A stretch of 64,000 nucleotides of DNA from an uncultured Candidatus Saccharibacteria bacterium (GTDB lineage: Bacteria > Patescibacteriota > Minisyncoccia > Phycocordibacterales > UBA9973). A program made the translations under genes and the position numbers. Shown here in pieces: positions 28,662 to 55,978 of this stretch. The first letter of the stretch is position 1, and each line of letters starts with the position of its first letter. The notes beneath the pieces are model-generated. The model ran no database searches. It was not told the DNA's origin and saw nothing but the letters and a program-made list of their open reading frames with translations. The stretch spans positions 86,061 through 150,060 of the forward strand of contig CAYZYV010000002.1 of assembly GCA_964482735.1 (NCBI GenBank). The letters are read 5' to 3'.

Positions 28662-28842
28662 GTGGGGCGTTTTTTATTTAGTCAGAAAACAAAAAACCAC
28701 CCGAGGGCGGAATTTTGCCAACTGATAATTATCTTGCGATAACTAACTGCTGTCCAATCAGTATAATCAAGAAACCAGAACAAGTCAAGCCTAACATGTG
28801 GATAACTTTTTAGCCTTATATGCTATTATTAAATAGTCTTAT

Positions 28843-29457
28843 ATGGAAAACTTATTATTTTTACTAAAAGGATTATTAATTGGACTTATTGTTGGCTTCC
28901 CTTCTGGGCCGGTTGGGTTTATTTACATCAAGAGAGCTACAACCGATGGCTTTCTCGCTGGATTTATTTCTGGATTAGGATCTACGGTCGCCCACTTAGT
29001 CTATGCTTTAGCTTTTCTTTTTGGATACTCAAAAATTTTAAAAATTTATAATGAAAGTGGGGATACTTTGACTTTCATTTTTTCTACTTTTATTATTATA
29101 TTAGGAATAATTATTTTCTTTTCAAACAAAAAGAAAGATTGTGACGGGGATAATGCAGAAAATCTTTTCGGCTATTTTCTTTCAGCTTTTGGGATCACTG
29201 TCACCAACCCAGTAGAGATTATTCAATTTACCTTTTTGTTTACCTCTCTTGGGATATTAGGATCTGTTGCAATTAATCATACTCTACTAATTTTAGGAAT
29301 AATTTTGGGATCAATTTTTTGGCCAACTCTAGCTTCATTTGGTTTGTCAAAAATCAGACACACTATTTCTAATAGAAAAGTGGAGTATCTTCAAAAATCA
29401 ATCGGCATAATAATTATATTAATAGGTTTATTTTTTATATTAAAGAATTTTACTTAA
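28843..29457 (+). CDS. LysE/RhtB-type amino-acid exporter family protein
   Basis: Six-TM small permease with N-terminal LLKGLLIGLIVGFPSGPVG typical of LysE-type translocators. Confidence 0.45.
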   Translation: MENLLFLLKGLLIGLIVGFPSGPVGFIYIKRATTDGFLAGFISGLGSTVAHLVYALAFLFGYSKILKIYNESGDTLTFIFSTFIIILGIIIFFSNKKKDCDGDNAENLFGYFLSAFGITVTNPVEIIQFTFLFTSLGILGSVAINHTLLILGIILGSIFWPTLASFGLSKIRHTISNRKVEYLQKSIGIIIILIGLFFILKNFT

Positions 29458-30499: not shown

Positions 30500-30576
30500 T
30501 TTTATCTTTAGATTAAATATGATAATATGTAAATATAATTTAATATTTGAGTAGCCTAAACCAATAAGTAATTATT

Positions 30577-30690
30577 GGCATGGTGAATAAGTCCCCGTAA
30601 AAGATAAAGAACTCCTAGTCAGAGTTTGCCTTTTACGGGGCTGTATCTGGAAACGGATACAGGTGGGTTAAAATCCACCATGCTGGCTGG
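30577..30690 (+). ncRNA. Multi-stem (cloverleaf-like) structured RNA candidate upstream of the 30724 ORF
   Basis: Outer stem GGCATGGTG/CACCATGC. Inner stems CCCCGTAAAAG/CTTTTACGGGG (enclosing the small hairpin AACTC-CTAGTCA-GAGTT), CTGTATC-TGGAAAC-GATACAG and GTGGG-TTAAAAT-CCAC. Followed by GGGAGC-TTTTT-GCTTCC. Confidence 0.3.
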
Positions 30691-31775: not shown

Positions 31776-32648
31776 CTAAAGACTTATATTGCCATTCTCG
31801 TCACATTTATAATTTTTGAAAAAATCTAGAACTCCTTTTTGTAAAGGATTTTTTGCCAATTCATTATAAACAAGTACAATGTCTTCACCTAAAATTTCTG
31901 AATGATTTAGTACGGTATTTTTTGTGTACATAACGGCACTTATACCCTCATGTTCTTTTTCAAGGAAAAAAGTCATAGGAACCTTACTTCCATTTTTCTT
32001 TAATATAAAAGGAATTGTGCTCCATCCATATTTTAATGGTCCACCATTTATCGGGCGAGATATAGTTTGATAACCTACAGCAAATACCGCCCTAAGTATC
32101 AACGGGATTGAAGCATCAACATGATCAAGAGCACCTCTAGATACAGCTATAACAAATTGATCAGAATCTTTTACTATTCCATCTTCTATATACTTTTCAT
32201 ACTTTTCTTTTAAAACAGATGCAATTCGTATAAGCATTTCATCACTTGGAACATTTTGAACAATACCAGTAATTGTTTCTGGAACCCTATCTTCTCCTTT
32301 CCCTTTTTCACAAGCAACACACTCAATCCAAATTTTTTTACCTTCATATTCAATTAGAATATCAGGACCTATGTCTTTAGATGAAAAAGTAATTCCTTTT
32401 TCCAATAATACACAACCAAGATACATTTCCCATGTTCTTTGATGAAACTTTTTTTTAATTTCTTTTAAGAAATTACTGTCAGCATATTGGTAATATTTTT
32501 GATAAAGAGAATCAAATTTATTTTTCCTTTCTTTTATTGATCCGCTTGTAACATAATAACTATCATAATTGGAATATTTTTTTATTAATGTCTGAAGTTC
32601 TGTTTCGGTTGTAATAAGTGGAAAATTATCTGTAAACAAATATTTCAT
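31776..32648 (-). CDS. Hypothetical 290-aa protein, third gene of the higB-higA/immA operon; weak PD-(D/E)xK-like signature
   Basis: Starts 2 nt after the upstream gene's stop. The segment GPDILIEYEGKKIWIECVACEK is the only nuclease-like motif; the rest is unrecognised. Confidence 0.35.
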   Translation of the reverse strand: MKYLFTDNFPLITTETELQTLIKKYSNYDSYYVTSGSIKERKNKFDSLYQKYYQYADSNFLKEIKKKFHQRTWEMYLGCVLLEKGITFSSKDIGPDILIEYEGKKIWIECVACEKGKGEDRVPETITGIVQNVPSDEMLIRIASVLKEKYEKYIEDGIVKDSDQFVIAVSRGALDHVDASIPLILRAVFAVGYQTISRPINGGPLKYGWSTIPFILKKNGSKVPMTFFLEKEHEGISAVMYTKNTVLNHSEILGEDIVLVYNELAKNPLQKGVLDFFKNYKCDENGNISL

Positions 32649-32650
32649 TT

Positions 32651-33712
32651 TTATGCAAATTTTAACCTAGGTCTTAAACTAGATACCATATTCCATGGAA
32701 CTTTTTTATCATGACACAACCTACCAGCAACGATGCCAGGATGAACTCCTAAACTTTTTGCAAAATTAATCACGCCATCTCTTGTTAATGGCTTCTTTAA
32801 GAAATCTATATAGTTTTCTTCTGGTATTAATTTATCACTGGCAAAATCATCGGCTTCTTTTTCCTTCTCTTGAACAATAGATAATTCTTTATTATCAAAC
32901 TCAATAAATTTCTCTTTTTTACCATGTAATATTAAATGTCCTAATTCATGATATAAATTAAACCAAAAAATATCTGCCCATGAGTTATAAATACTCAGCT
33001 GTATTACAGGATTATTATTAATCCACCTAACAGCCCCACTTACTCCACTACCTGAAAAATGAGGAATATATACTAAAGCTACTCCGGCTTGATTTAAAAT
33101 TTTAATTACTTCTTTTGAAAAATCTTCCGGTTTTTTTACTGATAGTAATTTAATTTGTGATAAAGATTCTTTTAGCTTTATTTCGGAATATTCCGGAAGA
33201 ACATTTTTTTTAGATTCCAACTCACCACACCTAAGCCATGTTGCAATAACTTCACTTTTAATATTTAGATTATTTTTTTTACGATAAGCAACAGTTTCTG
33301 TTGTCTGAACATATGACAAAGAATTAACCCCAAAAAATCTCCAGAGATTTTCAACTTTTTTATAGTTATTTGTGGTTTTTTCAACAAATCCTCGTTTTGC
33401 AAGTTCTGCATAAGGGAATTTAGAAATCATTTCTGTTTCTTTTTTAATTATTGAAATTCTTTCAATTCTAGCTCTAGTTTCTTGATATTTTTTTTCAAGA
33501 TTAACCCAAAAGGAAGCTGATCCACCTAAAGCATTTTCTAAAAGTAGTGCAGTCTCAACAGTTATGGAAGCTTCTCCATTTATTATTTGACTTATATGTT
33601 TCTCTGTGAGACCTGTTCTCTCGCTGAGACTTTTTTGAGTCATTCCTTCACGATCTAGGGCTTTTGAAATGGTATACCCGGGGTGTATTGCTTTGTTTGG
33701 ATTATAAACCAT
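32651..33712 (-). CDS. HigA-type XRE-family HTH antitoxin fused to ImmA/IrrE-family HEXXH metallopeptidase domain
   Basis: N-terminal IHPGYTISKALDREGMTQKSLSERTGLTEKHISQIINGEASITVETALLLENALGGSASFWVNLE is a HigA-like HTH. C-terminal YHELGHLILHG is the HEXXH of COG2856-type peptidases. Confidence 0.7.
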   Translation of the reverse strand: MVYNPNKAIHPGYTISKALDREGMTQKSLSERTGLTEKHISQIINGEASITVETALLLENALGGSASFWVNLEKKYQETRARIERISIIKKETEMISKFPYAELAKRGFVEKTTNNYKKVENLWRFFGVNSLSYVQTTETVAYRKKNNLNIKSEVIATWLRCGELESKKNVLPEYSEIKLKESLSQIKLLSVKKPEDFSKEVIKILNQAGVALVYIPHFSGSGVSGAVRWINNNPVIQLSIYNSWADIFWFNLYHELGHLILHGKKEKFIEFDNKELSIVQEKEKEADDFASDKLIPEENYIDFLKKPLTRDGVINFAKSLGVHPGIVAGRLCHDKKVPWNMVSSLRPRLKFA

Positions 33713-33722
33713 AAATTTATAT

Positions 33723-34085
33723 TTAATGATAATTGATAAATATTTCTATTATTAAAATAAATGTTATACTTTTATAATTATCTATTCTAAAATTTGGGTC
33801 TCCATCATGATTCGGTTTAAATATAATTCTATATTTATTATCAACATCAACAGCAAAACATCCTTTATATTCTCCCTTTAATGGGTGGGGGCGATAACTA
33901 TGTGGAACATCAGATAATGCATCAGCTGAAATAAGTATGTTTAATGTGTTCAGAATATCCGTAGCATAATCAATTCCTTTTTTGTTATATCTTTTACATA
34001 AGGCATTGTAATCATTAACAAGGGCCTCGTGTTTTGGATTATCAAATACTATTCTCATATTAACAAATATTACTAAAAACTGCAA
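33723..34085 (-). CDS. higB: HigB-like (RelE/ParE superfamily, plasmid-maintenance killer) toxin
   Basis: C-terminal HPLKGEYKGCFAVDVDNKYRIIF...YH matches the HigB killer-protein pattern. Directly upstream of the HigA-like gene. Confidence 0.6.
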   Translation of the reverse strand: MQFLVIFVNMRIVFDNPKHEALVNDYNALCKRYNKKGIDYATDILNTLNILISADALSDVPHSYRPHPLKGEYKGCFAVDVDNKYRIIFKPNHDGDPNFRIDNYKSITFILIIEIFINYH

Positions 34086-34196
34086 CTTTTTTATTTACCA
34101 TTTTGGTAAATAAAAAAACTAATAAATCGTTTATTTTCTGATGTTTATTATGGTATTTAATTATATATAATAAGTTATCCACAAGTATTATTTAAA

Positions 34197-35885
34197 TTAT
34201 TTCTTAAGCCTTCCTTTTGAGCCAATTTTATTATCGTCCACAATATCTCGGAGTTGATTGATTAGAACCATAATTTCTTCAATTTTTTTTACAATGCGTT
34301 TTTGTTCAGCAAGAGGTGGGAGTGGTATATTAGCAGATTTAACTTTCTCTGCATTAAGATTTTTTACAACTGCACCAGAAACTATATCTGCGAATTGTTG
34401 AAAAAATACGTTTGAGGATAACATATAATAAAAAAAATCTCTAAAGGTTTCTTTGTAATAGGGTTTTAAAACCAGCCAGCCGTCGTGAATACATCCATCA
34501 ATCTTTAATATATATGGTCTCCCAAAACTCATTGAGTTAGTAAGAAGTAAATCTCCAACATGTACCATTCTTGTCTTTTTTAAACCAGCTTTAATAATTT
34601 TTTCTTTAGTAGAATATATATATTTTCCTCCTTGTTCTGTGTCTCCAATCTTTATCCAATTCAATCCGTCATCATTATTCGTTATATAACTTTCAATTGG
34701 ACGTGGTGAGCCACCTCTTTCAACTGAAAATACATCACCGAGCTTAACCCATTTCCATGATTTTGGAATTTCAAAAAGTAAATCTTTATTATCCATAAAA
34801 ATTGACTCCTTATTTTTCTTTTTTTTATTATCATTTATTTCTATTCTTTTCTTTTCAATATTAATAAAAGATAATAGATCTTCCGCAGTTCCTTCTTTTT
34901 TATCCTGCGGAACTAATTTACCAGAAACAGCAAGGCTTAAAATTGCATCTTCTAACTCTTTAATATCTTCAGGCGTTTTTACCAATTCGGCTAATTGTTT
35001 TAGCGCAATTTTTGTTTCTCCTTTTCCGAGAGATTGCATGGCGCTACGAGTAAGACGGGAGCGAATTTCATCACGTTCATTTTTCCTAATTTCAAGCTTG
35101 TCTAATTGTTTTATTACTTCTTCAATTTTTTTTACAATGCGATTTTGTTCTTTGTATGGAGGCAAAGGAATAACAAAAGATTTTATATCGTCCATCGATA
35201 TATTATCATTTGTAGAATTTTTCTTTTTATTAATAAAATCTTGTATATAAGAAGAAAGGATTACATAATTAATATATTCCGAAATAATATTATCGTTAAT
35301 CTTTATAGTTGCAACTCTTTGATTTGTTACCATTTTTTCATCTATATTTCTTACAAAATAACTCTTACCAACTGTACCACCAGTCATACATAAAAGTATA
35401 TTTTCATTATTTATTTCGAATTGAGCTAAACTCGAATAATAATCATGACGTACTATTTTATTATTTTTAAATCCATTTTCGTCAAAATCAGATATCTTAA
35501 TTACTCTAACTCCAGTATTTTTAAAATTTTGGCTTTTAAAGGCATATCCACCATTAATGTCAGATAAATTATTTAATCTTGTCCATTTCCAAGATATAGG
35601 AATTTCAAATGGGATTTCTTCTTCATTTATATTTAAAAGTTTTTTTTCTGTATCATTCTTTAAACATTCTGATTTAATTTTATTAAATAATTCTTCACCA
35701 GTTCCTTCTTTTTTATCCTGTGGAACTAATTTACCAGACATAGCCAAAGTAAGTATCGCTTTACGAAGGCGATTTATTCCATCTGGTACTTCTATGAAAT
35801 CATCAATATTATTAGCAATAGTTTTTATATCATTTAGTATCATGGTGAGAAAGCGCTTCGGTGATAACTGTGCGAATTTGCTCAA
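34197..35885 (-). CDS. hsdS: Type I restriction-modification specificity subunit HsdS (two target-recognition domains)
   Basis: Duplicated conserved regions AILTLAMSGKLVPQDKKEGT / AILSLAVSGKLVPQDKKEGT and IPLPPYKEQNRIVKKIEE / IPLPPLAEQKRIVKKIEE flank two variable domains. The annotated start overlaps hsdM; the real start is probably an internal Met. Confidence 0.8.
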   Translation of the reverse strand: MSKFAQLSPKRFLTMILNDIKTIANNIDDFIEVPDGINRLRKAILTLAMSGKLVPQDKKEGTGEELFNKIKSECLKNDTEKKLLNINEEEIPFEIPISWKWTRLNNLSDINGGYAFKSQNFKNTGVRVIKISDFDENGFKNNKIVRHDYYSSLAQFEINNENILLCMTGGTVGKSYFVRNIDEKMVTNQRVATIKINDNIISEYINYVILSSYIQDFINKKKNSTNDNISMDDIKSFVIPLPPYKEQNRIVKKIEEVIKQLDKLEIRKNERDEIRSRLTRSAMQSLGKGETKIALKQLAELVKTPEDIKELEDAILSLAVSGKLVPQDKKEGTAEDLLSFINIEKKRIEINDNKKKKNKESIFMDNKDLLFEIPKSWKWVKLGDVFSVERGGSPRPIESYITNNDDGLNWIKIGDTEQGGKYIYSTKEKIIKAGLKKTRMVHVGDLLLTNSMSFGRPYILKIDGCIHDGWLVLKPYYKETFRDFFYYMLSSNVFFQQFADIVSGAVVKNLNAEKVKSANIPLPPLAEQKRIVKKIEEIMVLINQLRDIVDDNKIGSKGRLKK

Positions 35886-37275
35886 GCACTTTTTTCACCT
35901 CTTGCTGTTTATTATGGTATGTTTCAAGTAATTCCTCTGGTGATTCAAGAACATCAACAGGAGTTCGAGGGTTCTTTATATCCAAGTTATAATTACGCTT
36001 GATAATTTCGTCTATAGAAACTTTCCACGCTTGATCATTTTCTTCACGATTATTCCACCATTTTGTCTCTTTTTCAAACTCATCAAATTTAATAGGGTTA
36101 GTCATCGAATATGCCTTTTGCCCTTCGGGGAGTGGATGCTCATAATACCAAATCTCCTTGGTTGGTTCACCTTTTGTAAAGAAAAGTAAGTTTGTTGCAA
36201 TAGTTGTATATGGGGCAAAAACACTCTTTGGTAAACGAACAATGGTGTGAAGATTACATTCTTCTAATAACTGTTTTTTGAGGGTTGTTTTCATACCTTC
36301 ACCAAACAAGGTTCCGTCGGGAAGAACCATACCTGCACGGCCATGTTTTTTAAGTAAACGCATAATAAGAACAAGAAAAAGATCTGCTGTTTCTCTTGTT
36401 TGAAATTCTTTTGGAAAATTAGATTCAATACCTGGCTCTTCAGTACCACCGAATGGAGGATTTGTAATAATACAATCTACCTTATCTGAATCTGTGTAAT
36501 CACGTATAGGTTTTTCTAGGGTGTTTCCACGGCGCATTGTCACAGGTTCTTCGATCCCGTGAAGCATCATATTGGTTATTAGAAGCATAAATGGAAGCGG
36601 TTTCTTTTCAACGCCATAGATACTCTGTTGAATTTTTTGTTCATCTTTAACTGATTTAACTTGTTTACGCATATGCTCAAGAGCATGTACCAAGAATCCT
36701 CCAGTGCCTACAGCTGGATCCATAACAGATTCACCAACTTTTGGATCTACCATTTCTACGACAAATTGAGTTACAGCACGAGGAGTATACATTTCTCCGA
36801 AATTACCAGCACTTTGTAAACTTTTTAAAAGACGTTCATATATGTCGTTAAAAGCATGACGATCTTTTGATGCATTGAAATCTATTTCATTTATTTTATT
36901 TATAACCTGTTTAAGTAAAGTACCTTTGCGCATAAAGTTATAAACATCCTTAAATGCCATACGTGTAAGGTCGGTTCTTTTGTTTCCTGATTCAGGAAGA
37001 TCTCTTAACCCAGGAAGTAAATCATTATTTACAAAATCAATGAGCTTATCTCCGGTCATCCCATCGAGAGGACCTGCCCATGTACGCCACTGATATTTTT
37101 TAGGAAGTGTAGGGATAAATTTATCTTTACGTATTTCAAGAGCTTTATCTTCATCATCTAAAATTTTTAGATAGATAAGCCAAACCATCTGAGACAAACG
37201 TGTAGCATCACCATCTACACCAACATCTTGGCGCATTATGTCTTGAATTGCTTTTATTGTTGATGGACTAAACAT
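35830..37275 (-). CDS. hsdM: Type I R-M DNA methyltransferase subunit HsdM (N6-adenine)
   Basis: Motif I DPAVGTGGFL and motif IV NPPFG. Confidence 0.9.
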   Translation of the reverse strand: MFSPSTIKAIQDIMRQDVGVDGDATRLSQMVWLIYLKILDDEDKALEIRKDKFIPTLPKKYQWRTWAGPLDGMTGDKLIDFVNNDLLPGLRDLPESGNKRTDLTRMAFKDVYNFMRKGTLLKQVINKINEIDFNASKDRHAFNDIYERLLKSLQSAGNFGEMYTPRAVTQFVVEMVDPKVGESVMDPAVGTGGFLVHALEHMRKQVKSVKDEQKIQQSIYGVEKKPLPFMLLITNMMLHGIEEPVTMRRGNTLEKPIRDYTDSDKVDCIITNPPFGGTEEPGIESNFPKEFQTRETADLFLVLIMRLLKKHGRAGMVLPDGTLFGEGMKTTLKKQLLEECNLHTIVRLPKSVFAPYTTIATNLLFFTKGEPTKEIWYYEHPLPEGQKAYSMTNPIKFDEFEKETKWWNNREENDQAWKVSIDEIIKRNYNLDIKNPRTPVDVLESPEELLETYHNKQQEVKKVLEQIRTVITEALSHHDTK

Positions 37276-37276
37276 A

Positions 37277-39646
37277 TTATTTGGTATACATTACATCTAA
37301 TAATTCATCGACTGTTTTAAAATATCCTTCCTTGCCACCAAATAATGAAACAAGTTCATAGTCGGTTCCAATAGAACGAAATGGTTCCAGTGTGAGAATT
37401 CTAACATTCTCAATATCTTTCAGGGTTACATCTGCATATTTTTGGAGTAAAGCCTCAAGAACTTCTCTTGCTTTTCCACTATATTTATCTAAATAATTTG
37501 AACGACGAACAGCTTCTATCCTTTCGTTCTTTTTCATCATTTTCTTATCATAACCAACGTGCATTATCAGATCAAAAAGATCAAACTCTGCACCAACTTG
37601 TTTTTGAAGTTCTTCAAGTGGAATTCCACTTGCGTCTATCTGATCAATGATTGCTTGGCGACGATCTGCTGATTGCCATGCTGTAAAGAAACTTTCAAGT
37701 GTTGGGTAATGCGTAAGAATATTCTTACGTGTAAAATCAGTTAATGACTGTGTTAGAAGTTTTCCATCAGGTCCAAGATATTGAACTTGTTCTTTTACTA
37801 CAGCATAAGGCACTCCACTTAAAGTAAATACTGGAGGTCTATCAATAACATCTAGAGATGACCCTTTTGAAAGAATAACGTCAACGAGTTTATCTTCATC
37901 CTCTTTTTCTTCAATAGTTAGTTCTGGTGGATCTTTTTCTGTTAATTCCTCTTCAATATTATCGTTTTCTCTTACTTCAAAAACACGTTCAGCAACTCCA
38001 TCAAAACCAGGATCGGCAAATAATTTTGTAACACCCTGAAAATCAATAATAGTAAACCACATTTTACCCTTATCTTCTCTTACACGAGTTCCACGACCTA
38101 TTATTTGTTTAAATTCAGTCATACTTTCTATTGGTTTATCAAGAACTATCAGTTTGCATGTTTGGGCATCAACACCGGTAGATAAAAGTTGTGATGTTGT
38201 AACTAATGTTGGATATTTTTCTTCAGGATCAATAAAACGATCCAGCTGGTTCTTTCCTTCTTCATCATCTCCCGTAATACGCATAACATAACGTGTATCT
38301 TCTAGTGATTTATCTCCTGAGGCATTTACTAATGCAGAACGCATACGTTCTGCATGTGCAGTTGTTCGGCAAAAGACAATGGTCTTAGCATAAGGATCAT
38401 TTATTGCATTAATATATTCAACTATTTTTTCAGCAACAATTTTGTCTCGCTGAGGAAAAATAACTGATTTGTTTATATCACGAAGTTCATAAATACGCTC
38501 TTCAACAAGGTTCCCATTGTCATCTATTGTACCAGGAGCAGGACGCCATCCGGTTATATCATTATCCAAGAGAACCCTTAATACTTTATATGGTGCTAAA
38601 AACCCATCATCTATACCTTGTTTTAATGAGTATGTATAAATAGACTCACCAAAATAATGAGTGGTGCTCGTGTCAGTTGTTTCTTTTGGTGTAGCTGTAA
38701 GTCCAAGGTGTGTAGCACTTGTAAAGTGATCAAGTATTTCATGCCATTCGCTATCTTCTGAGGCACTACCTCTATGACACTCATCTACTATTATCAAATC
38801 AAAGAAATCTTTTGGAAGTTTTTTGAATAATTTATCATTCTCTTCCTTTCCACTCATTGCTTGATATAAACCTAAAAATACCTCATATGCCATGAGTGAT
38901 CCTATATCATTAAAATCTTGACGAGAAATTTTTGTTAGAGCATTTCCAAAGTGTTTAAGATCGTTTACACGTGCTTGATCAACTAAAATATTTCTATCAG
39001 CAAGAAAGAGTATTCTTTTGGCGTTCCCAGATTTCCAAAGACGCCACATGATTTGTCCAGCAGTATAAGTTTTTCCTGTACCAGTTGCCATAACTAAGAG
39101 TAATCGCTTTTCACCTCGTGCAATGGCTTCAACAGAACGATCAATAGCTATTCTCTGAAAATATCGTGGTGATTTATTTGGATCATCTGAATAAAAAGGT
39201 GTTTCAATTGCAGTACGTAGTGTTGCAGATTCTCCTTTCCATTTTAAATAACGTTGGTAAAGTTCTTCTGGAGAAGGAAAATTATCTAAATTAAGAGAAG
39301 ATTCAGTCACTTCAGATATTCCGGTTCTATCATGAAAAAGATAACCATTTCCATTTGAAGAGAAAACAAAAGGCACATCAAGATTTTCTGCATAAACTAA
39401 AGCTTGTTGCATTCCTATACCAAGATCCTTATTTGAATGTTTTGCTTCTATAATTGCCAATGGTAAGTTAGGTCTATATTCAAGGAGAAAATCTACTTTC
39501 TTTTTTTCTCCACGCTTTGTAGTTTTTCCACTAACATGAATACGTCCCATTGTGTATGGATACTCCTCACGAATTTGTTGGTCTGTCCATCCAGAATTTA
39601 TTATTGATGGCCTTATTAATCTATTGCGTGTTTCTTCTTCGTTCAT
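37277..39646 (-). CDS. hsdR: Type I R-M restriction subunit HsdR (helicase-nuclease)
   Basis: N-terminal HsdR_N nuclease region, Walker A ATGTGKT, DECHRG (DEAD-box type) and helicase C motifs. 789 aa. Confidence 0.9.
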   Translation of the reverse strand: MNEEETRNRLIRPSIINSGWTDQQIREEYPYTMGRIHVSGKTTKRGEKKKVDFLLEYRPNLPLAIIEAKHSNKDLGIGMQQALVYAENLDVPFVFSSNGNGYLFHDRTGISEVTESSLNLDNFPSPEELYQRYLKWKGESATLRTAIETPFYSDDPNKSPRYFQRIAIDRSVEAIARGEKRLLLVMATGTGKTYTAGQIMWRLWKSGNAKRILFLADRNILVDQARVNDLKHFGNALTKISRQDFNDIGSLMAYEVFLGLYQAMSGKEENDKLFKKLPKDFFDLIIVDECHRGSASEDSEWHEILDHFTSATHLGLTATPKETTDTSTTHYFGESIYTYSLKQGIDDGFLAPYKVLRVLLDNDITGWRPAPGTIDDNGNLVEERIYELRDINKSVIFPQRDKIVAEKIVEYINAINDPYAKTIVFCRTTAHAERMRSALVNASGDKSLEDTRYVMRITGDDEEGKNQLDRFIDPEEKYPTLVTTSQLLSTGVDAQTCKLIVLDKPIESMTEFKQIIGRGTRVREDKGKMWFTIIDFQGVTKLFADPGFDGVAERVFEVRENDNIEEELTEKDPPELTIEEKEDEDKLVDVILSKGSSLDVIDRPPVFTLSGVPYAVVKEQVQYLGPDGKLLTQSLTDFTRKNILTHYPTLESFFTAWQSADRRQAIIDQIDASGIPLEELQKQVGAEFDLFDLIMHVGYDKKMMKKNERIEAVRRSNYLDKYSGKAREVLEALLQKYADVTLKDIENVRILTLEPFRSIGTDYELVSLFGGKEGYFKTVDELLDVMYTK

Positions 39647-39650
39647 AAAA

Positions 39651-40496
39651 TTATTTTCTTACATTTTCATCTAATGTTTTACCTTTATCATCTTTCCAAG
39701 CAGTCCAGCCATTGCAAGACCTACCAGCTATACAATCAGCAGCAGCACTTGGACTTTTGAAAACATAATCATTTTCAAAAATAAATGACTCCTCATTGAA
39801 TTTTTTTAGTATACCTTCGTTTTCCAGCTTCTTTCTTAATAAAGATCCACTATGATCTATAAAAGCAGGAGTTTCTTTAATTCTAGATAAAGATCCTTTA
39901 TATACAATAAATTCTCCGCTTTCTAATAATGAGCCTTTCCCATTCCCTGCTTTATTTGTAGCATCTGAAAATTCATATATTTTTTTATCTGAAATAGATT
40001 CAGTAATAACACTAAATAATTGATATCCTAATGTTTCTAGAATAAATTGAACTTTTTCAAAAAAATCTTCTACTGAAATTTTATCAATGTCTGATAGTGA
40101 ATTCTCTGGTGGTTGCACCTTATTTTGTATTACCATTCGATTTACTTTGTGCGCCAAAACAGTAGCTTTATGTTCTAAATATTTAACATGAGCTTTATTT
40201 AAAACACCGGTAAAAATTGCGGCTGTATCCCAGAAATCTTTATTTGAATCGTGATTAGTAATTCTATTATAGAAATTTTCAGATTCTCCTATGTAGGCAA
40301 GATCATCACCTGATTCTTCATCAAAACCGAACAAAACATAAAGACCTGGCTTATCTATATCAGGAAAATCTTTTAATTCTTTTAAATTTTGACGTGGCAA
40401 CAAAAAACATTTGCCAGACCATCCAGGAACTTCTATTATTTTCATTCCATTAGGGTTTCCTCCTGGAACAAGAATTTGTATGGCTTTTGATTTCAT
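39651..40496 (-). CDS. GIY-YIG nuclease family protein (DUF4357-like C-terminus), R-M associated
   Basis: GLYVLF...AYIGESENFYNRITNH is a GIY-YIG core. The gene is immediately downstream of hsdR. Confidence 0.55.
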   Translation of the reverse strand: MKSKAIQILVPGGNPNGMKIIEVPGWSGKCFLLPRQNLKELKDFPDIDKPGLYVLFGFDEESGDDLAYIGESENFYNRITNHDSNKDFWDTAAIFTGVLNKAHVKYLEHKATVLAHKVNRMVIQNKVQPPENSLSDIDKISVEDFFEKVQFILETLGYQLFSVITESISDKKIYEFSDATNKAGNGKGSLLESGEFIVYKGSLSRIKETPAFIDHSGSLLRKKLENEGILKKFNEESFIFENDYVFKSPSAAADCIAGRSCNGWTAWKDDKGKTLDENVRK

Positions 40497-40623
40497 AAAG
40501 TTATAGTCTCATAATACTACTTTTTGCCTTATTCTCAAAGAGTGATTTAAGGAATTTGATTTTTTAAATAAATATGATACGATTATATTAGAAGCACTTT
40601 TAAATTAAATGTCAACGAACTAA

Positions 40624-40675
40624 AAATGGTGGTATTCCACCAACAAACCAAAAAATGGTGGTATTCCACCAACTG
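40624..40675. repeat. Two tandem 23-bp iterons AAAAATGGTGGTATTCCACCAAC, each with an internal inverted repeat; putative replication origin
   Basis: Direct read. Located 230 nt upstream of the Prim-Pol/AAA gene in a 400-nt AT-rich intergenic region that also contains TTATCAATTATCAATAAG. Confidence 0.55.
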
Positions 40676-40900
40676 AACTAGATAAGCTCGACAGCTTCCA
40701 TTATCAATTATCAATAAGTCATGCGCATTTATGCTGTCAGTTTAGTTGTATATAAAAAATTTAATATCAAAAAATTGTAAACATAAGTAGCACCTGGCAG
40801 AGGTGTTTTTTTGTTTTTATTAAGTATGTCGATTCTTATCTAATGAACCAACACCTCACATTAATTAGTTTTTTATGTAGGTCTTGGATAATAACAATAC

Positions 40901-42712
40901 ATGTTCGTTTCCAGGACCTACATAAGGAACAACGAACATGTTATGAATGAAAACATAAAAAATAAAAAAGAGTCTGCTATTTATTATCAACAAATGGGTT
41001 TAAGTATCATTCCAACTGGTAGAAATAAAAAACCACTAATTGATTCGTGGAAACAATATGAAAGTATACGCCCAACAATCGAAGAAATTACTACATGGTG
41101 GGATAAATGGCCAGAAGCAAATCCTGCACTTGTTACAGGTAAGGTATCAGGAGTTGTCGCTCTTGATTTAGATAAAAAACATAATAGAACATCAAAAGAA
41201 TTTCAAATACCTCCGACAGCCTCAGCAATATCTGGAAATGGAGGTGAGCATTTCTTTTTCAAATATCCATTAAATGGTCCAGTTAAGACGTCATCTGCTA
41301 TAAGCGGATATGGCGTTGACTCTCGAGGGGATGGAGGATACATACTTCTCTCACCATCTGAAAATGAAAATGGAGGCAAATATACATGGATTGTTCCTTT
41401 TGAGTCAAAAGAAGATTTGGCTGATATGCCTGATTGGTTATTAAGTCTTACTACTGAAAAGGAAAATACTAAGAAGTGGTTAGATGGAATGAATGGTGTA
41501 TCAGAAGGTTCTAGAAATGACACAGCGACCTCAATGGCAGGAAAGATAATTAGTTCGACTAGTCCTGAATTATTAGAAAGTATTGGATGGGACCAATTCA
41601 AGATTTGGAATGATAGAAACATTCCACCTCTTCCAGAAAAGGAATTACGAAATGTTTGGGAAAGCATAAAAAGAAAACATGTAAATAAAGAAAAAACTAA
41701 TTTTGATGAACATCAATTTGTTTCTCTTGGAGATTTACTAAATGAACCTGAGGAAACAATAAGTTGGGTAATAGAAGATATGTTGCCTGCTGGTGGTTTT
41801 TCTATTATGGTAGCAAAACCAAAAGTTGGAAAATCAACGCTCGTAAGACAATTAGCACTGTGCGTTGCTCGCGGAGAATCCTTCCTAGAAAGAAAAACAG
41901 AAAAAGGTGGTGTTTTATATGTGGCATTGGAAGAAAAACGAGGAGAAGTTAAAAACCATTTTAAACTTCTTGGAGCTGACGGCACAGAAGATTTAGGCGT
42001 ATATGTTGGATCTGCTCCTGGAGAAGCATATACATGGCTTGAAAATGAAGTAAAAAAGAAACACCCAATATTGATAATTATTGATACTCTTTTCCGATTC
42101 GCTCGCGTTGCAGATGTTAGTGATTATGCAAAAGTTACAAATGCTCTAGATCCACTCTTAAAATTAGCTAGAGAAAATTCCACCCATTTAATGTGTCTTC
42201 ATCATGCAAGAAAAATGCCTGGGGATGGAGCTGATGCTACTCTTGGGTCTACTGCCATTTTTGGAACTGTAGATACCGCCATGTTACTTAAGAGAAATAA
42301 AGACGGTAAAAGAACCCTCGAAACTCAACAAAGATATGGAAGAGATATGGAAGAGACTGTATTGATGTTTAACGTTGATTTAAAAACAATAACTCTGGGT
42401 AGTTTAAAAGAAGAAGAGGATGAAAAGAAAATCGAGGAGTTAATTATAGATTTATTGAAATCATCAAAAGAACCAATTGATGAAAAAACCATTCGAGATG
42501 AAATTGAAGGAAAAACTACACTAAAAAGTATTGCACTTAGATCATTATTTCAAGGTGGAAAAATAACAAGAACCGGTTTAGGTAGAAAAGGAGATCCTTA
42601 TCTTTATTCTTGTTCCCTTGTTCCCGATATATGTGAGGAACAAGAAAACAAGAAAGAGATTGGTCCTAAAGATATCCAATTAAAAGATAACTTGGAGAAT
42701 TTTACCCTTTAG
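40901..42712 (+). CDS. Bifunctional DNA primase-polymerase (Prim-Pol) N-domain fused to AAA_25/RepA-like ATPase
   Basis: N-terminal YYQQMGLSIIPTGRNKKPLIDSWKQY...ALDLD is a Prim-Pol domain. Central Walker A KPKVGKST and the DTLFRFAR Walker B region indicate a RecA-like ATPase. Confidence 0.7.
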   Translation: MFVSRTYIRNNEHVMNENIKNKKESAIYYQQMGLSIIPTGRNKKPLIDSWKQYESIRPTIEEITTWWDKWPEANPALVTGKVSGVVALDLDKKHNRTSKEFQIPPTASAISGNGGEHFFFKYPLNGPVKTSSAISGYGVDSRGDGGYILLSPSENENGGKYTWIVPFESKEDLADMPDWLLSLTTEKENTKKWLDGMNGVSEGSRNDTATSMAGKIISSTSPELLESIGWDQFKIWNDRNIPPLPEKELRNVWESIKRKHVNKEKTNFDEHQFVSLGDLLNEPEETISWVIEDMLPAGGFSIMVAKPKVGKSTLVRQLALCVARGESFLERKTEKGGVLYVALEEKRGEVKNHFKLLGADGTEDLGVYVGSAPGEAYTWLENEVKKKHPILIIIDTLFRFARVADVSDYAKVTNALDPLLKLARENSTHLMCLHHARKMPGDGADATLGSTAIFGTVDTAMLLKRNKDGKRTLETQQRYGRDMEETVLMFNVDLKTITLGSLKEEEDEKKIEELIIDLLKSSKEPIDEKTIRDEIEGKTTLKSIALRSLFQGGKITRTGLGRKGDPYLYSCSLVPDICEEQENKKEIGPKDIQLKDNLENFTL

Positions 42713-42716
42713 GATC

Positions 42717-42899
42717 ATGGTCAAAAAAGAAACTATAATTGAATTTATGGGGGCCTTAAAAGAAGAATACAACAGAGATGTGGACTTCAAAGAGGCATCA
42801 ATAATACTAAACGATTTAGTTTCTTATTTTGACTTGTTAGCTAAAATAGACCATGTGCAAGATGAGGTAAAAAATGATATAATGTATGAGCCAGACTGA
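42717..42899 (+). CDS. Small 60-aa hypothetical protein
   Basis: ORF only. Confidence 0.3.
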   Translation: MVKKETIIEFMGALKEEYNRDVDFKEASIILNDLVSYFDLLAKIDHVQDEVKNDIMYEPD

Positions 42900-43007: not shown

Positions 43008-44570
43008 ATGAAAAATAAAATAAATAAAGCTGTCATAATTTGTCGTGTTTCAAGTAAAGAGCAAGAAGATACTGGCTACTCTTTGGATGCACAAGAAAAG
43101 TTGCTTCAGACATATGCTGACGAAAGAAATATAAATGTAATAAGAGTATATAAAATTTCAGAATCAGCCAGTGGAAAAATGGTAAGAAAAAAGTTCTACG
43201 AAATTTTACAGTATATTAAAAAGAATAATGCTAATTTAATATTAGCAGAAAAGATTGATCGTCTAACTAGAAATCTAAAAGATGCTTCAATAATAAATGA
43301 TTGGGTCCAGGAAAATAAAAACAATGAAGTTCATTTTGTTAAAGAAAACTTTATTGTCAGTCAGAATACAAAAGCTCATGAAAATCTTGTCTGGGATATG
43401 AAAGTTGCTATTGCTAGATTTTACACAAACAATCTCTCGGAAGAAGTAAAAAAGGGTCAGAAAGAAAAAATTTCTCAAGGGTGGTTACCAACAAAACCTC
43501 CTCTTGGTTATGAGACAGTTGGAGAAAAAGGACATAAGGTTCACATTATAGACAAAGAACGAGCTCCTTATATTAAGAAAATGTTTGAACTTTATTCTTC
43601 CGGAAATTATTCAACTCATATGATGGTTGAGTTAATGTATAAAGAAGGATTAAGAAACCGATCAGGTAAAAAGGTTGGGAAATCTAGAATGTATGACCTA
43701 CTTTCAGATCCATTTTACTGTGGAAAAATTAAGTGGAAAGAACAAATCTTTAATGGAAAACAAGAACCTATTATAACAAAAGACTTATATGATTTGGTCC
43801 AGGAGAAATTAAATCGTAAATTTAAGAGCCCTCAATATCAAAAACATAACCCTGTTTTTAAGGCAAAAATGGAGTGTGATGAATGTAAAGGAACTGTTAC
43901 TTGGGAGACTCACAAGGGTCATTGGTATGGACATTGTAACCATTATAAAACTTGTAGCCAGAAAGTTTGGAAAAGACAGGAGGATGTTGAAAAGATACTT
44001 TTCCCTTTATTTGATAACGTAGCCCCAAAAACAAATAAGGTATTAAAAGTATTAGAAAAAGCATTAAAGGAGAATCACGAAGATGAGATAAAATATAACA
44101 ACAATGTTCTAAGTGGTATAAATAAAAAAATAGAAACAGCGCAAAGAAGAATTGAGGCTATCTATGAAGATAAAATTGATGGGAAAATTTCACCAGAATT
44201 TTACAATAGAAAATTGGCAGAATATACAAAAGAAAAAGAAGACGCCATGGAATCTCTTAAAAAATTAAACGAAGGAAACACTAAATATTACGAGGCTGGG
44301 TTCGCAATACACGAGCTTGCTTCAAGAGCTTCTGAGATTTATAAGAGCCCTAAAGCCACAGTAGAAGATAAAAGATTACTTTTAAGTAAAATATTTTCGA
44401 ACCTTTCATTAAATGCTGATGAAATAAAGCCAAATTACACATTAGCCTTCGAATTTCTCAGAGAATGGATACCTATACTAAATAATAATTTCGAACCAGA
44501 AAAAGATGTTGCTAATAAAGGAAAAGAGAGCACTTTCGTGCTCCCTCGTCCTACTTTGCTCCGTGGGTAG
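43008..44570 (+). CDS. Large serine recombinase (resolvase/invertase N-domain, recombinase domain, Zn ribbon)
   Basis: N-terminal AVIICRVSSKEQ catalytic-Ser region. Recombinase domain, then CDECKG...HCNHYKTC zinc ribbon and a coiled coil. The last 12 nt overlap tRNA-Asn. Confidence 0.85.
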   Translation: MKNKINKAVIICRVSSKEQEDTGYSLDAQEKLLQTYADERNINVIRVYKISESASGKMVRKKFYEILQYIKKNNANLILAEKIDRLTRNLKDASIINDWVQENKNNEVHFVKENFIVSQNTKAHENLVWDMKVAIARFYTNNLSEEVKKGQKEKISQGWLPTKPPLGYETVGEKGHKVHIIDKERAPYIKKMFELYSSGNYSTHMMVELMYKEGLRNRSGKKVGKSRMYDLLSDPFYCGKIKWKEQIFNGKQEPIITKDLYDLVQEKLNRKFKSPQYQKHNPVFKAKMECDECKGTVTWETHKGHWYGHCNHYKTCSQKVWKRQEDVEKILFPLFDNVAPKTNKVLKVLEKALKENHEDEIKYNNNVLSGINKKIETAQRRIEAIYEDKIDGKISPEFYNRKLAEYTKEKEDAMESLKKLNEGNTKYYEAGFAIHELASRASEIYKSPKATVEDKRLLLSKIFSNLSLNADEIKPNYTLAFEFLREWIPILNNNFEPEKDVANKGKESTFVLPRPTLLRG

Positions 44571-44630
44571 GGATCGAACCTACGACCAATCGCTTAACAG
44601 GCGACCGCTCTACCGCTGAGCTACCACGGA
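44559..44630 (-). tRNA. tRNA-Asn (anticodon GTT)
   Basis: Acceptor TCCGTGG/CCACGGA, anticodon stem GTCGC/GCGAT with loop CTGTTAA, T-arm GTAGG-TTCGATC-CCTAC. Confidence 0.85.
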
Positions 44631-53600: not shown

Positions 53601-53970
53601 TTTATATGGTTTTGTGTTTATAAGCCGAATTCTGTTCTCCGACTTTTAGTCGGAGCGGTAAACATTTATCTAGACCTAAAGTTACCCTCAGGCTCAAGCG
53701 ATTCAGACTCCGACCAAGGTCGGAGAATACGATCTTGCACACTCGTAAGGATTTAGCCGTTTCATTTTCTATGTTTCCATAGAACTCACCCCTCACTTAC
53801 GTTTAGGGTGCTACACTCTTTCGAGTTAATAGCGTCTCTGCTCGCACCTCTATGATTACTCACGATGGGTGTTACCCACTACAACTGCCTGACGTAGTCA
53901 GACTGTGTGTTCGGACTTTCCTCACTCCGACATAAATCGAAGCGCGTTTACCTAACACAAAACCATAAAC
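53600..53970 (-). ncRNA. rnpB: RNase P RNA (bacterial type A-like)
   Basis: On the minus strand: P1 pairing TATGGTTTTGTGTT (5') with AACACAAAACCATA (3'). P4 5' strand GAGGAAAGTCCGAAC. The 3' P4 strand ACAGAATTCGGCTTA matches the universal ACAGAAnnCGGCUUA. Length about 370 nt. Confidence 0.75.

Positions 53971-54436: not shown

Positions 54437-55978
<1,542 letters not shown>

Follow-up and report, generated by a model that had tools for sequence, protein, structure and literature searches.

A structured leader before a primase-helicase gene and a variable spacer with terminator-like hairpins in an integrative element

What is held in the intergenic gap of 446 nt that separates the replication gene of an integrative element from a divergent neighbour? 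The gap occupies positions 40497-40942 of a stretch of 64,000 nt (64 kb, here called the window) of contig CAYZYV010000002.1, from an uncultured Candidatus Saccharibacteria bacterium. To its left lies a gene for a GIY-YIG/DUF4357 protein (39651-40496, minus strand) and to its right rep (40943-42712, plus strand), whose 589-residue product carries Prim-Pol, PriCT_1 and AAA_25 (RepA-like helicase) domains. An earlier note had placed the replication origin of the element here, on the basis of two 23-bp iterons, TTATCAA repeats and interlocked inverted repeats over the rep start, and had suggested rep autoregulation. The region is the divergent regulatory region of an integrative element of ~14-15 kb inserted at a tRNA-Asn gene, and the iteron/origin interpretation was not supported. 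The best explanation, with a probability of roughly 0.6, is a divergent control region with a variable terminator spacer and a structured rep mRNA leader; that Rep synthesis is under cis-acting RNA control is, taken by itself, likely.

Both pairs of interlocked inverted repeats are real, and they are located just upstream of the rep start (40869-40941) and not over it. Between ATGTAGGTCTTGGA (40875-40888) and TCCAGGACCTACAT (40910-40923) 13 Watson-Crick pairs and one G.T can form, and the resulting helix, S1, reaches 20 bp when extended outward (40869-40888 with 40910-40929), a run of six U pairing with AAGGAA. The sequences ACATGTTCGTT (40899-40909) and AACGAACATGT (40931-40941) form a perfect 11-bp complement, S2, which is interlocked with S1. 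The plus strand therefore reads as the 5′ strand of S1 (U6 and AUGUAGGUCUUGGA), an A-rich loop L1 (UAAUAACAAU, 40889-40898), the 5′ strand of S2, which lies within the S1 loop and abuts the next strand, the 3′ strand of S1 with its purine-rich end AAGGAA, and the 3′ strand of S2. The whole leader is 73 nt long and ends 1 nt before the rep ATG at 40943. Folding of 40850-40960 (plus strand) gave -34.4 kcal/mol, with z = -6.8 against shuffled sequences, and the minus strand folded less well.

ATG 40943 is the true start of rep: the protein P0001 (99% identical) is also 589 residues long and the N-termini of homologues align there. A 2-nt insertion in four sister elements (L001, L080, L081 and L204; related loci are cited by number) shifts ATG 40901 out of frame. 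Upstream of the leader is a conserved block (…ATTAAGTATGTCGATTCTTATCTAA…CATTAATTAG, 40819-40868, plus strand), 89% identical to L204, which presumably contains the rep promoter and the start of its mRNA. A clean consensus promoter could not be recognised in 40819-40868; directly before the leaders of other lineages an ATTAAT-like element is found again.

The same S1-L1-S2a-S1b-link-S2b-AUG layout was found, with unrelated sequence, in L083, L092, L089, L091, L094, L099, L007, L006 and L121, and at least 10 lineages carry this architecture before primase-helicase genes. A purpose-written layout scan found L092, L089, L091, L094, L099 and L007, and a covariance model added L006 and L121. In L083, whose Rep is only 65% identical, the layout is built from an entirely different sequence. 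The lengths of the parts vary within narrow limits: 18-23 nt for the 5′ strand of S1, 6-10 nt for L1 in all lineages, 10-12 nt for S2, 0-4 nt for the link and 0-2 nt from S2 to the ATG. Every downstream gene codes for an AAA_25 helicase; the primase part fused to it is Prim-Pol in some and of the zinc-finger/Toprim type in others.

Comparison of the lineages revealed compensatory double changes at every position of S1 and S2. Within lineages the arms form 17.3 canonical pairs of 18 in S1 and 10 of 10 in S2; when arms were swapped between lineages these values fell to 10.9 and 4.5. S2, at 10-12 bp, is fully paired in 10/10 lineages. As MAFFT did not align the leaders structurally and moved the window-type rows by 2 columns, the formal count was made on a gap-free alignment of the nine non-window lineages. 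There 97.2% of cells pair against 62% after shuffling, and double changes occur in 27 of the 30 pairs. The covariation score was 0.948 against 0.274, and was matched by none of 500 shuffles; when the partner was slid by 1-3 columns, pairing fell to 33-42%. The window-type leader was tested separately, by script and with covariance models. Model R1, built from four foreign sequences, found L080, L001 and L083. Model R2, from which any window-type sequence was excluded, matched the window at 40872-40955 (plus strand) with 41 bits and E = 2e-6, its sole significant match in 64 kb.

G.U pairs outnumber A.C mismatches by 30 to 5 (p = 2e-5), which indicates that it is the plus strand that folds, in single-stranded form. 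Both helices are under selection; the interlocked repeats are functional and conserved, and very likely serve to regulate rep. The suggestion of rep autoregulation thus holds to the extent that this is a control region of rep, while the control would act on the mRNA leader and not through iterons.

A search of 40300-41100 against Rfam 15 returned nothing but microRNA/snoRNA noise, with a best score of 27.7 bits where 90 is the threshold, and the leader of L091, which is more consensus-like, gave no Rfam match at E values up to 10. A search of the literature for a description of a primase-gene leader motif yielded nothing informative. As far as Rfam and the literature show, the leader is apparently an undescribed motif and a new variation on structured rep-mRNA leaders. 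A ribozyme was considered and rejected in view of the near absence of invariant nucleotides and the lack of an Rfam match. Leader peptides were also considered and rejected: ATG 40843 is ACG in L001 and L080, and the positions of ATG 40875-TAG and ATG 40901 are not conserved in other lineages.

The translation signals of the host bear on how such a leader could act. No Shine-Dalgarno (SD) motifs were found upstream of 47 open reading frames (ORFs) of the window. The 3′ end of the 16S rRNA (54437-54500, minus strand) ends ...GGAAUAAUUC instead of ...GGAUCACCUCCUU; it reads ...GGAAGCUGUUCGUGGAAUAAUUC and is without the CCUCC anti-SD. The idea that AAGGAA (40924-40929) is an SD of rep sequestered by S1 was ruled out on both these grounds. 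Many genes of the window have a TGnTATAAT box 6-10 nt before the ATG, which suggests that leaderless mRNAs may be widespread in this host. In such a host, without SD/anti-SD pairing and with genes that in many cases look leaderless, initiation should depend on whether the start codon is accessible. The 16S gene is unlinked to a 23S gene and adjoins the RNase P RNA (53605-53963).

S1 is the minimum-free-energy fold in 10/10 lineages; to impose S2 in a nested energy model costs 2.6-14 kcal/mol. The strand order of an H-type pseudoknot, S1a-S2a-S1b-S2b, is present. In pseudoknot geometry a link of 0-4 nt cannot span an S1 of 18-23 bp, whereas a loop of 6-10 nt suits the crossing of an S2 of 10-12 bp. 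The full S1 and S2 are therefore mutually exclusive, and S2 leaves room for no more than the upper part of S1, in a pseudoknot that the length of L1 makes feasible. The lower part of S1 and S2 are similar in length.

It is proposed that the leader RNA toggles between the full hairpin, in which the start region would be single-stranded, and a pseudoknot of upper S1 with S2, in which it would be paired. The hairpin state would free positions -12 to +20 and permit translation of Rep; the S2/pseudoknot state would pair everything up to -1 and block initiation. This specific polarity, hairpin permissive and pseudoknot blocking, is put forward tentatively. The trigger of the switch would be any event that releases the 5′ strand of S1: termination of a ribosome on a small upstream ORF in several lineages, and the action of a protein or an RNA elsewhere. 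In L099, L007, L006 and L089 the stop of a small ORF lies 4-30 nt upstream of S1, and in our own reading of the upstream sequences one ends ~8-15 nt before S1 in L091 and L094; in all six a terminating ribosome might open lower S1. The overall effect would be to limit Rep synthesis.

Known systems offer partial parallels. In the IncI-alpha/IncB plasmids (ColIb-P9 repY-repZ, pMU720 repBA) translation of the initiator is coupled to that of an upstream frame through a pseudoknot, which activates translation (PMC8053102, which cites Asano & Mizobuchi 1998 and Praszkier & Pittard 2002 for this mechanism). The present leader shares with them a hairpin loop complementary to sequence just 5′ of the rep start, here realised by S2, and in six lineages a small upstream ORF that ends near the structure and whose translation could remodel it; the purpose, to limit initiator synthesis, would also be shared. 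It differs in having no sequence or Rfam relationship to the plasmid leaders and in the size of S2, which is 10-12 bp rather than a few and reaches position -1 relative to the AUG. Furthermore, the host here lacks SD/anti-SD, the window-type leader has no conserved upstream ORF, and the polarity may be opposite. A sequence scan for a minus-strand promoter opposite the leader, from which an antisense RNA could be made, found no convincing one.

Equilibria between a hairpin and a pseudoknot serve as translational operators in the Escherichia coli rpsO/S15 mRNA and in the leader of phage T4 gene 32, where a protein that binds nucleic acid uses them for feedback. These share with the present case a choice between the two folds at the initiation region, and they provide a plausible model for feedback by Rep or by the 60-residue protein encoded next to it. 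The stems here are much longer, there is no SD, and a protein partner is hypothetical.

The other part of the earlier proposal concerned the repeats farther upstream. The 23-mer AAAAATGGTGGTATTCCACCAAC does occur twice, at 40622-40644 and 40651-40673 rather than over 40624-40675 as had been given, and the copies do not stand head-to-tail; the period is 29 bp with a spacer of 6 nt. Two such matches were obtained in 0/100 shuffles. Each copy contains an internal palindrome, TGGTGG-TATT-CCACCA, as had been described. The TTATCAA repeats are present too: TTATCAATTATCAATAAG at 40701-40718 (Tandem Repeats Finder, period 7, 2.3 copies), read as TTATCAA TTATCAA TAAG, is a duplication private to the window, relatives having a single copy. 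A small hairpin, AAGCT-CGAC-AGCTT, lies at 40684-40697 and is AAGCT-CGAC-GGCTT in relatives. The motif search for further iteron copies, which had been proposed as a check, gave no third copy in 64 kb at up to 3 mismatches, and no further related copy of the 23-mer or of the palindrome was found in the window, 204 loci or IMG/VR. An exact 22-nt match to the 23-mer (AAAATGGTGGTATTCCACCAAC) is present in an unrelated, GC-rich viral contig of IMG/VR (L205, 5393-5414); it is rarer than expected for such a length and is probably due to chance.

These repeats were compared with what is found at iteron origins. Such origins have at least three direct repeats of ~17-22 bp in helical phase; here there are two, 29 bp from start to start. 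Their repeats are conserved or co-vary with the initiator, which is not so in L001, L080, L081 and L204. As to an AT-rich unwinding element and/or DnaA boxes, G+C within the gap varies between 0.22 and 0.40 (window, 0.33) without forming a distinct AT-rich block, and DnaA-box-like 9-mers number 91 against 87 expected. GC skew showed nothing above background, its switch coinciding with the switch of gene orientation, and no other tandem or direct-repeat arrays were found across the island. The earlier note had named, next to uniform coverage, a lack of iteron-like repeats near homologous rep genes as what would speak against its reading, and 12 related rep regions contain no iteron arrays. The region shares with the iteron origins of pSC101, RK2 and P1, with the ori of SaPI and with the ori/crr of phage P4 (beside the alpha primase-helicase gene) the presence of direct repeats in non-coding DNA beside a primase/helicase gene. 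It differs from them in that its two copies are out of helical phase, each with an internal hairpin, are not conserved alongside a virtually identical Rep and have no counterpart array in related elements, and in that DnaA boxes are lacking.

The comparison with sister copies of the element (L001, L080, L081 and L204, from other samples and independent) tests the iteron reading directly. In these four, Rep differs at 4-14 of 589 residues (575-585 identical, 97.6-99.3%) and the 60-residue protein at 0-2 of 60 (58-60 identical). Against L204, rep is 99.6% identical at the DNA level, with 4 amino-acid changes, none past residue 300; the GIY-YIG gene is 99% identical, the block 40497-40569 96%, and the gene of the 60-residue protein with the 5′ part of the integrase gene 99.9%. 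Between flanks of 96-99.9% identity lies a hypervariable central segment (40570-40788, ~220 bp; L204 750-990) of only 59% identity with 36 gap columns, and it is this segment that holds the 23-mers, the small hairpin and the TTATCAA duplication.

At both 23-mer positions all four sisters have other hairpins, on the minus strand GGCGG-TTTA-CCGCT and GTGTGA-AGAA-TCACAC, with a flanking motif partly retained (GTTG-hairpin-RTTGTTT). Sister hairpin 1 is orthologous to window copy 1, with compensatory changes in the stem, and hairpin 2 is unrelated to copy 2. A recent duplication or conversion at this locus is therefore the simplest account of the perfect 23-mer repeat. A virtually unchanged Rep cannot specifically bind both sets of hairpins. 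The sisters also carry a 51-codon plus-strand ORF (L204 819-974; L080 962-1117) that runs across both hairpins and ends just before a plus-strand terminator; it was called by the gene finder in L204 and stops at codon 5 in the window. Indels and this early stop in the window speak against coding by the central segment, whether by this ORF of the relatives or by a 43-residue minus-strand ORF.

Read on the minus strand, each 23-mer resembles an intrinsic terminator. A 6-bp stem and 4-nt loop, TGGTGG-AATA-CCACCA, is followed by TTTTTAG in copy 1 (40642-40627) and by TTTTTTGG in copy 2 (40671-40656), giving TGGTGGAATACCACCA and then a run of 5-6 T; the terminator scan reported both, and the energy is -8.8 kcal/mol. 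On the plus strand a hairpin with the same character, (A)GCACCT-GGCAG-AGGTG(TT) with a T-run, lies at 40789-40818. A stem-loop is thus directly followed by a U-tract in both 23-mers (minus strand) and in 40789-40807 with its T7 (plus strand). The plus-strand terminator recurs in relatives with its stem kept and its loop varying, and an analogous terminator is found upstream of the rep leaders in L083 and L092. Similar sites, a small hairpin with T6, follow other genes of the window. The likeness to intrinsic terminators lies in the short G+C-containing stem-loop with a T-run; the difference is that the U-tracts are degenerate in relatives.

As the minus-strand hairpins of the 23-mers face the conserved plus-strand terminator, the centre of the region is read as a bidirectional-terminator spacer. 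With moderate confidence, it is a variable spacer with terminators for both directions that insulates the cargo promoter (40538-40511) from the rep promoter. The former is a promoter-like site, TTGAGA-16-TATTAT (40511-40538, minus strand), 14 nt upstream of the GIY-YIG/DUF4357 gene. The two minus-strand hairpins, acting as tandem intrinsic terminators, would halt leftward transcription before the cargo promoter, and the plus-strand terminator would halt rightward transcription before the rep promoter. What the comparisons show directly is the anatomy, the conservation with its covariation, the strand specificity and the lack of conservation of the 23-mers, whereas termination activity, like the polarity and the trigger of the leader, is what we infer.

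The alternatives were weighed against this combination of spacer and leader. If the 23-mers were iterons bound by Rep or a partner, the excised element would have its vegetative origin here, and Rep would autoregulate on DNA through the inverted repeats. Origins often adjoin rep, the 23-mer repeat is statistically non-random, the stretch between the divergent genes is non-coding and no origin was located elsewhere in the island. Set against this are the number and spacing of the copies (two, ~2.8 helical turns apart), their replacement by two mutually unrelated hairpins in four elements whose Rep is nearly the same, the lack of arrays, DnaA-box enrichment or an AT-rich block noted above, and the excess of G.U over A.C with the fixed distance to the AUG, neither of which is expected of a double-stranded DNA site; this reading is highly improbable. 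The two 16-bp palindromes (TGGTGGTATTCCACCA) might instead be operators for a dimeric repressor of the element, such as the HTH_3/M78 protein encoded in the cargo region (32651-33712), the segment being an immunity-type specificity region for divergent promoters. Perfect dyad symmetry, two copies between divergent promoters and a segment swapped between otherwise identical elements, as immunity regions are, would fit, but the two different palindromes of the relatives would need two different proteins, and L080 keeps the sister version though its cargo region, with any HTH gene, is absent. Moreover, no further operator-like copy is found near other promoters of the island, and the sites are ~90-160 bp away from the promoter-like site of the cargo operon and far upstream of the place that the rep promoter must occupy, so that repression of this kind seems quite unlikely. 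The central segment might also encode two convergent small transcripts, one on the plus strand up to the terminator at 40789-40818 and one on the minus strand up to the tandem hairpins, as an antisense-controlled small gene or an RNA incompatibility/immunity determinant, with the 23-mers as its terminators. Terminator-like structures do face each other ~120 nt apart, the relatives show an extended -10-like TGATATATT (our own reading of the alignment) and, in L204, an ORF (819-974) ending just before the plus-strand terminator, and the module is swapped as a unit. The product of that ORF, destroyed in the window, is however of low complexity, convincing conserved promoters were not found, the minus-strand fold has a z-score of only -1.65 and there is no Rfam match; transcripts of this sort are unlikely.

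The leader itself could be read as DNA, S1/S2 acting on the displaced plus strand as a single-stranded initiation site, folded as a hairpin or like a pseudoknot, where the primase-helicase is loaded or priming takes place, comparable to RSF1010 with its ssi sites or pRN1 with its stem-loop origin; the rep start would then be the origin after all. In RSF1010 the hairpins ssiA and ssiB are recognised by the RepB′ primase alongside the RepA helicase, and lie on opposite strands beside the RepC iterons. Hairpins in the replication region of an element with a primase of the archaeo-eukaryotic type and a RepA-like (AAA_25) helicase are common to both cases; the differences are that both small hairpins here are on one strand, that their sequence is variable and that there is no RepC-like initiator. 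The RepB′ family is discussed in PMC5862659. Conservation before primase-helicase genes whatever their primase domain (Prim-Pol or zinc-finger/Toprim) speaks for such a site, the strand asymmetry fits any single-stranded plus-strand nucleic acid, and single-stranded DNA and RNA motifs are bioinformatically indistinguishable (PMC5737381). Yet the distance from the end of S2 to the start codon is 0-2 nt throughout the lineages, which is sensible only for an mRNA, the G.T equivalents of the 30 G.U pairs are less stable in DNA, and in several lineages the element lies between two co-oriented ORFs of one operon; a purely DNA role is very unlikely. Finally, the primase-helicase might bind S1/S2 in both forms, as a bistable hairpin/pseudoknot operator in the mRNA, through which Rep would regulate itself without SD pairing, and as a loading/priming site on the plus strand of the DNA (a structured origin), with the LOOT RNA described below as a second structured component. 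We regard this as a long shot, with little probability; if true, the dual role would rescue an origin at the rep start by a different mechanism and would give LOOT its first functional context.

Several points weigh against the preferred reading, a terminator spacer with a structured mRNA leader. The covariation alignment was put into structural register by hand, with N-padding, which favours structure, though the slid and shuffled controls are far lower, and the covariation set comprises only ~10 lineages. The ON/OFF polarity of the leader is a guess, and in the IncI-alpha/IncB plasmids the pseudoknot activates translation instead. No upstream ORF is conserved before the leaders of the window type, L083 and L092, where the trigger would have to be a protein or an RNA. 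In the sisters the U-tracts after both hairpins are weak (GGUUGUUU, AUUGUUU), though the hairpins are kept with compensatory changes, and termination may not be their conserved role. No minus-strand gene or RNA that would need the tandem terminators was identified. The high divergence of 40570-40788 between elements that are otherwise 99% identical is not explained by a pure spacer/terminator role, and hints at a specificity function, for which an immunity-type module and a small antisense pair are candidates. As the origin of the element was not located anywhere, part of the region may hold it, although nothing found here points to an origin.

The genes of the island were assigned with Pfam and PHROG. 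The GIY-YIG/DUF4357 gene is the first of a cargo operon, and on the same strand after it come type I hsdR, hsdM and hsdS (restriction-modification), a RelE-like gene and the HTH/M78 gene. On the other side, rep is followed by the gene of the 60-residue partner protein (42717-42899, plus strand), which is homologous to small ORFs directly upstream of rep in other lineages, and by that of a large serine recombinase, the integrase (43008-44570, plus strand), whose last 13 nt overlap the tRNA-Asn gene (44558-44630, minus strand) at the right end of the element. Fusions of Prim-Pol, PriCT and RepA-helicase domains are typical replication proteins of integrated elements (PMC5862659). A search of viral contigs for close relatives of Rep found only distant ones.

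The island of L081 is 96% identical up to the tRNA and its flank beyond the tRNA only ~72%, and the block is therefore mobile. L080 is without the entire cargo region (31776-40350) and has at its left a LysE homologue, corresponding to 28843-29457 of the window; from this layout the left end of the island lies near 29.5-30.5 kb. L080 (1-703, against window 28730-28871 and 40351) is a minimal element, lacking the toxin-antitoxin-like genes, the type I restriction-modification genes and most of the GIY-YIG gene, which is cut after ~49 codons. This minimal version indicates that the cargo turns over while the core of rep and integrase stays 96% identical. A direct repeat of the 3′ end of tRNA-Asn, sought in order to fix the left border, did not turn up; a serine recombinase would not be expected to leave one. 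The 3′ end of the integrase ORF overlaps the 3′ end of the target tRNA on the opposite strand both in the window (44524-44570, with tRNA-Asn at 44558-44630) and in L083 (ORF 6159-7910, with tRNA-Ala at 7843-7916), and within the coding sequence of the integrase there is also a hairpin resembling a terminator for the tRNA (44547-44524, minus strand). Both the 3′ end of the tRNA and its terminator are therefore provided by the element. The contig of L001 (JAGVVH010000423.1), which bears a 94%-identical element, sits in a metagenome-assembled genome labelled 'Bacteroidetes bacterium', while its relatives and the window look Patescibacteria-like; mis-binning of a mobile element or transfer across phyla may account for this.

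The 60-residue protein belongs to a family of 52-62 residues (M.l....i.k.....#YG...s..eA......L..L) that always accompanies rep, either directly upstream, sometimes overlapping the rep ATG, or directly downstream. Members are found in the window (42717-42899), L082 (~3833-4010), L203 (610-768) and L086, and as the upstream ORFs in L099, L007, L006 and L089. The family has no Pfam or PHROG match; the protein may be a regulator or a recombination directionality factor.

The LOOT RNA (Rfam RF03000) travels with this family of primase-helicase/serine-integrase elements and was detected above the gathering threshold in 11 loci: the window (30553-30679, plus strand), L083 (3484-3607), L082 (2347-2474), L085 (2195-2317), L084 (1970-2083), L092 (2472-2592), L089 (1035-1157), L097 (1635-1757), L005 (3611-3726), L095 (1043-1156) and L007 (784-903). 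It is followed by a small membrane-protein gene in the loci checked (window, L080 and L083), and seven LOOT loci have a tRNA gene at the other end (window, L083, L092, L097, L005, L095 and L007). To our knowledge LOOT is an orphan motif known only from metagenomes, and a literature search for it gave nothing informative. Its place inside a defined family of mobile elements makes the function of this orphan family testable.

For annotation, it follows that the 23-mers, a private duplication in a fast-changing spacer, should not be entered as an origin. The leader is a candidate for a new cis-regulatory RNA motif, in which two competing helices covary unusually cleanly. It abuts the rep start codon in small integrative elements of candidate-phyla-radiation-type (Patescibacteria-like) bacteria and their relatives, in which few regulatory RNAs are known, and it offers a handle both on the control of SD-independent initiation and on the self-limited replication of such elements.

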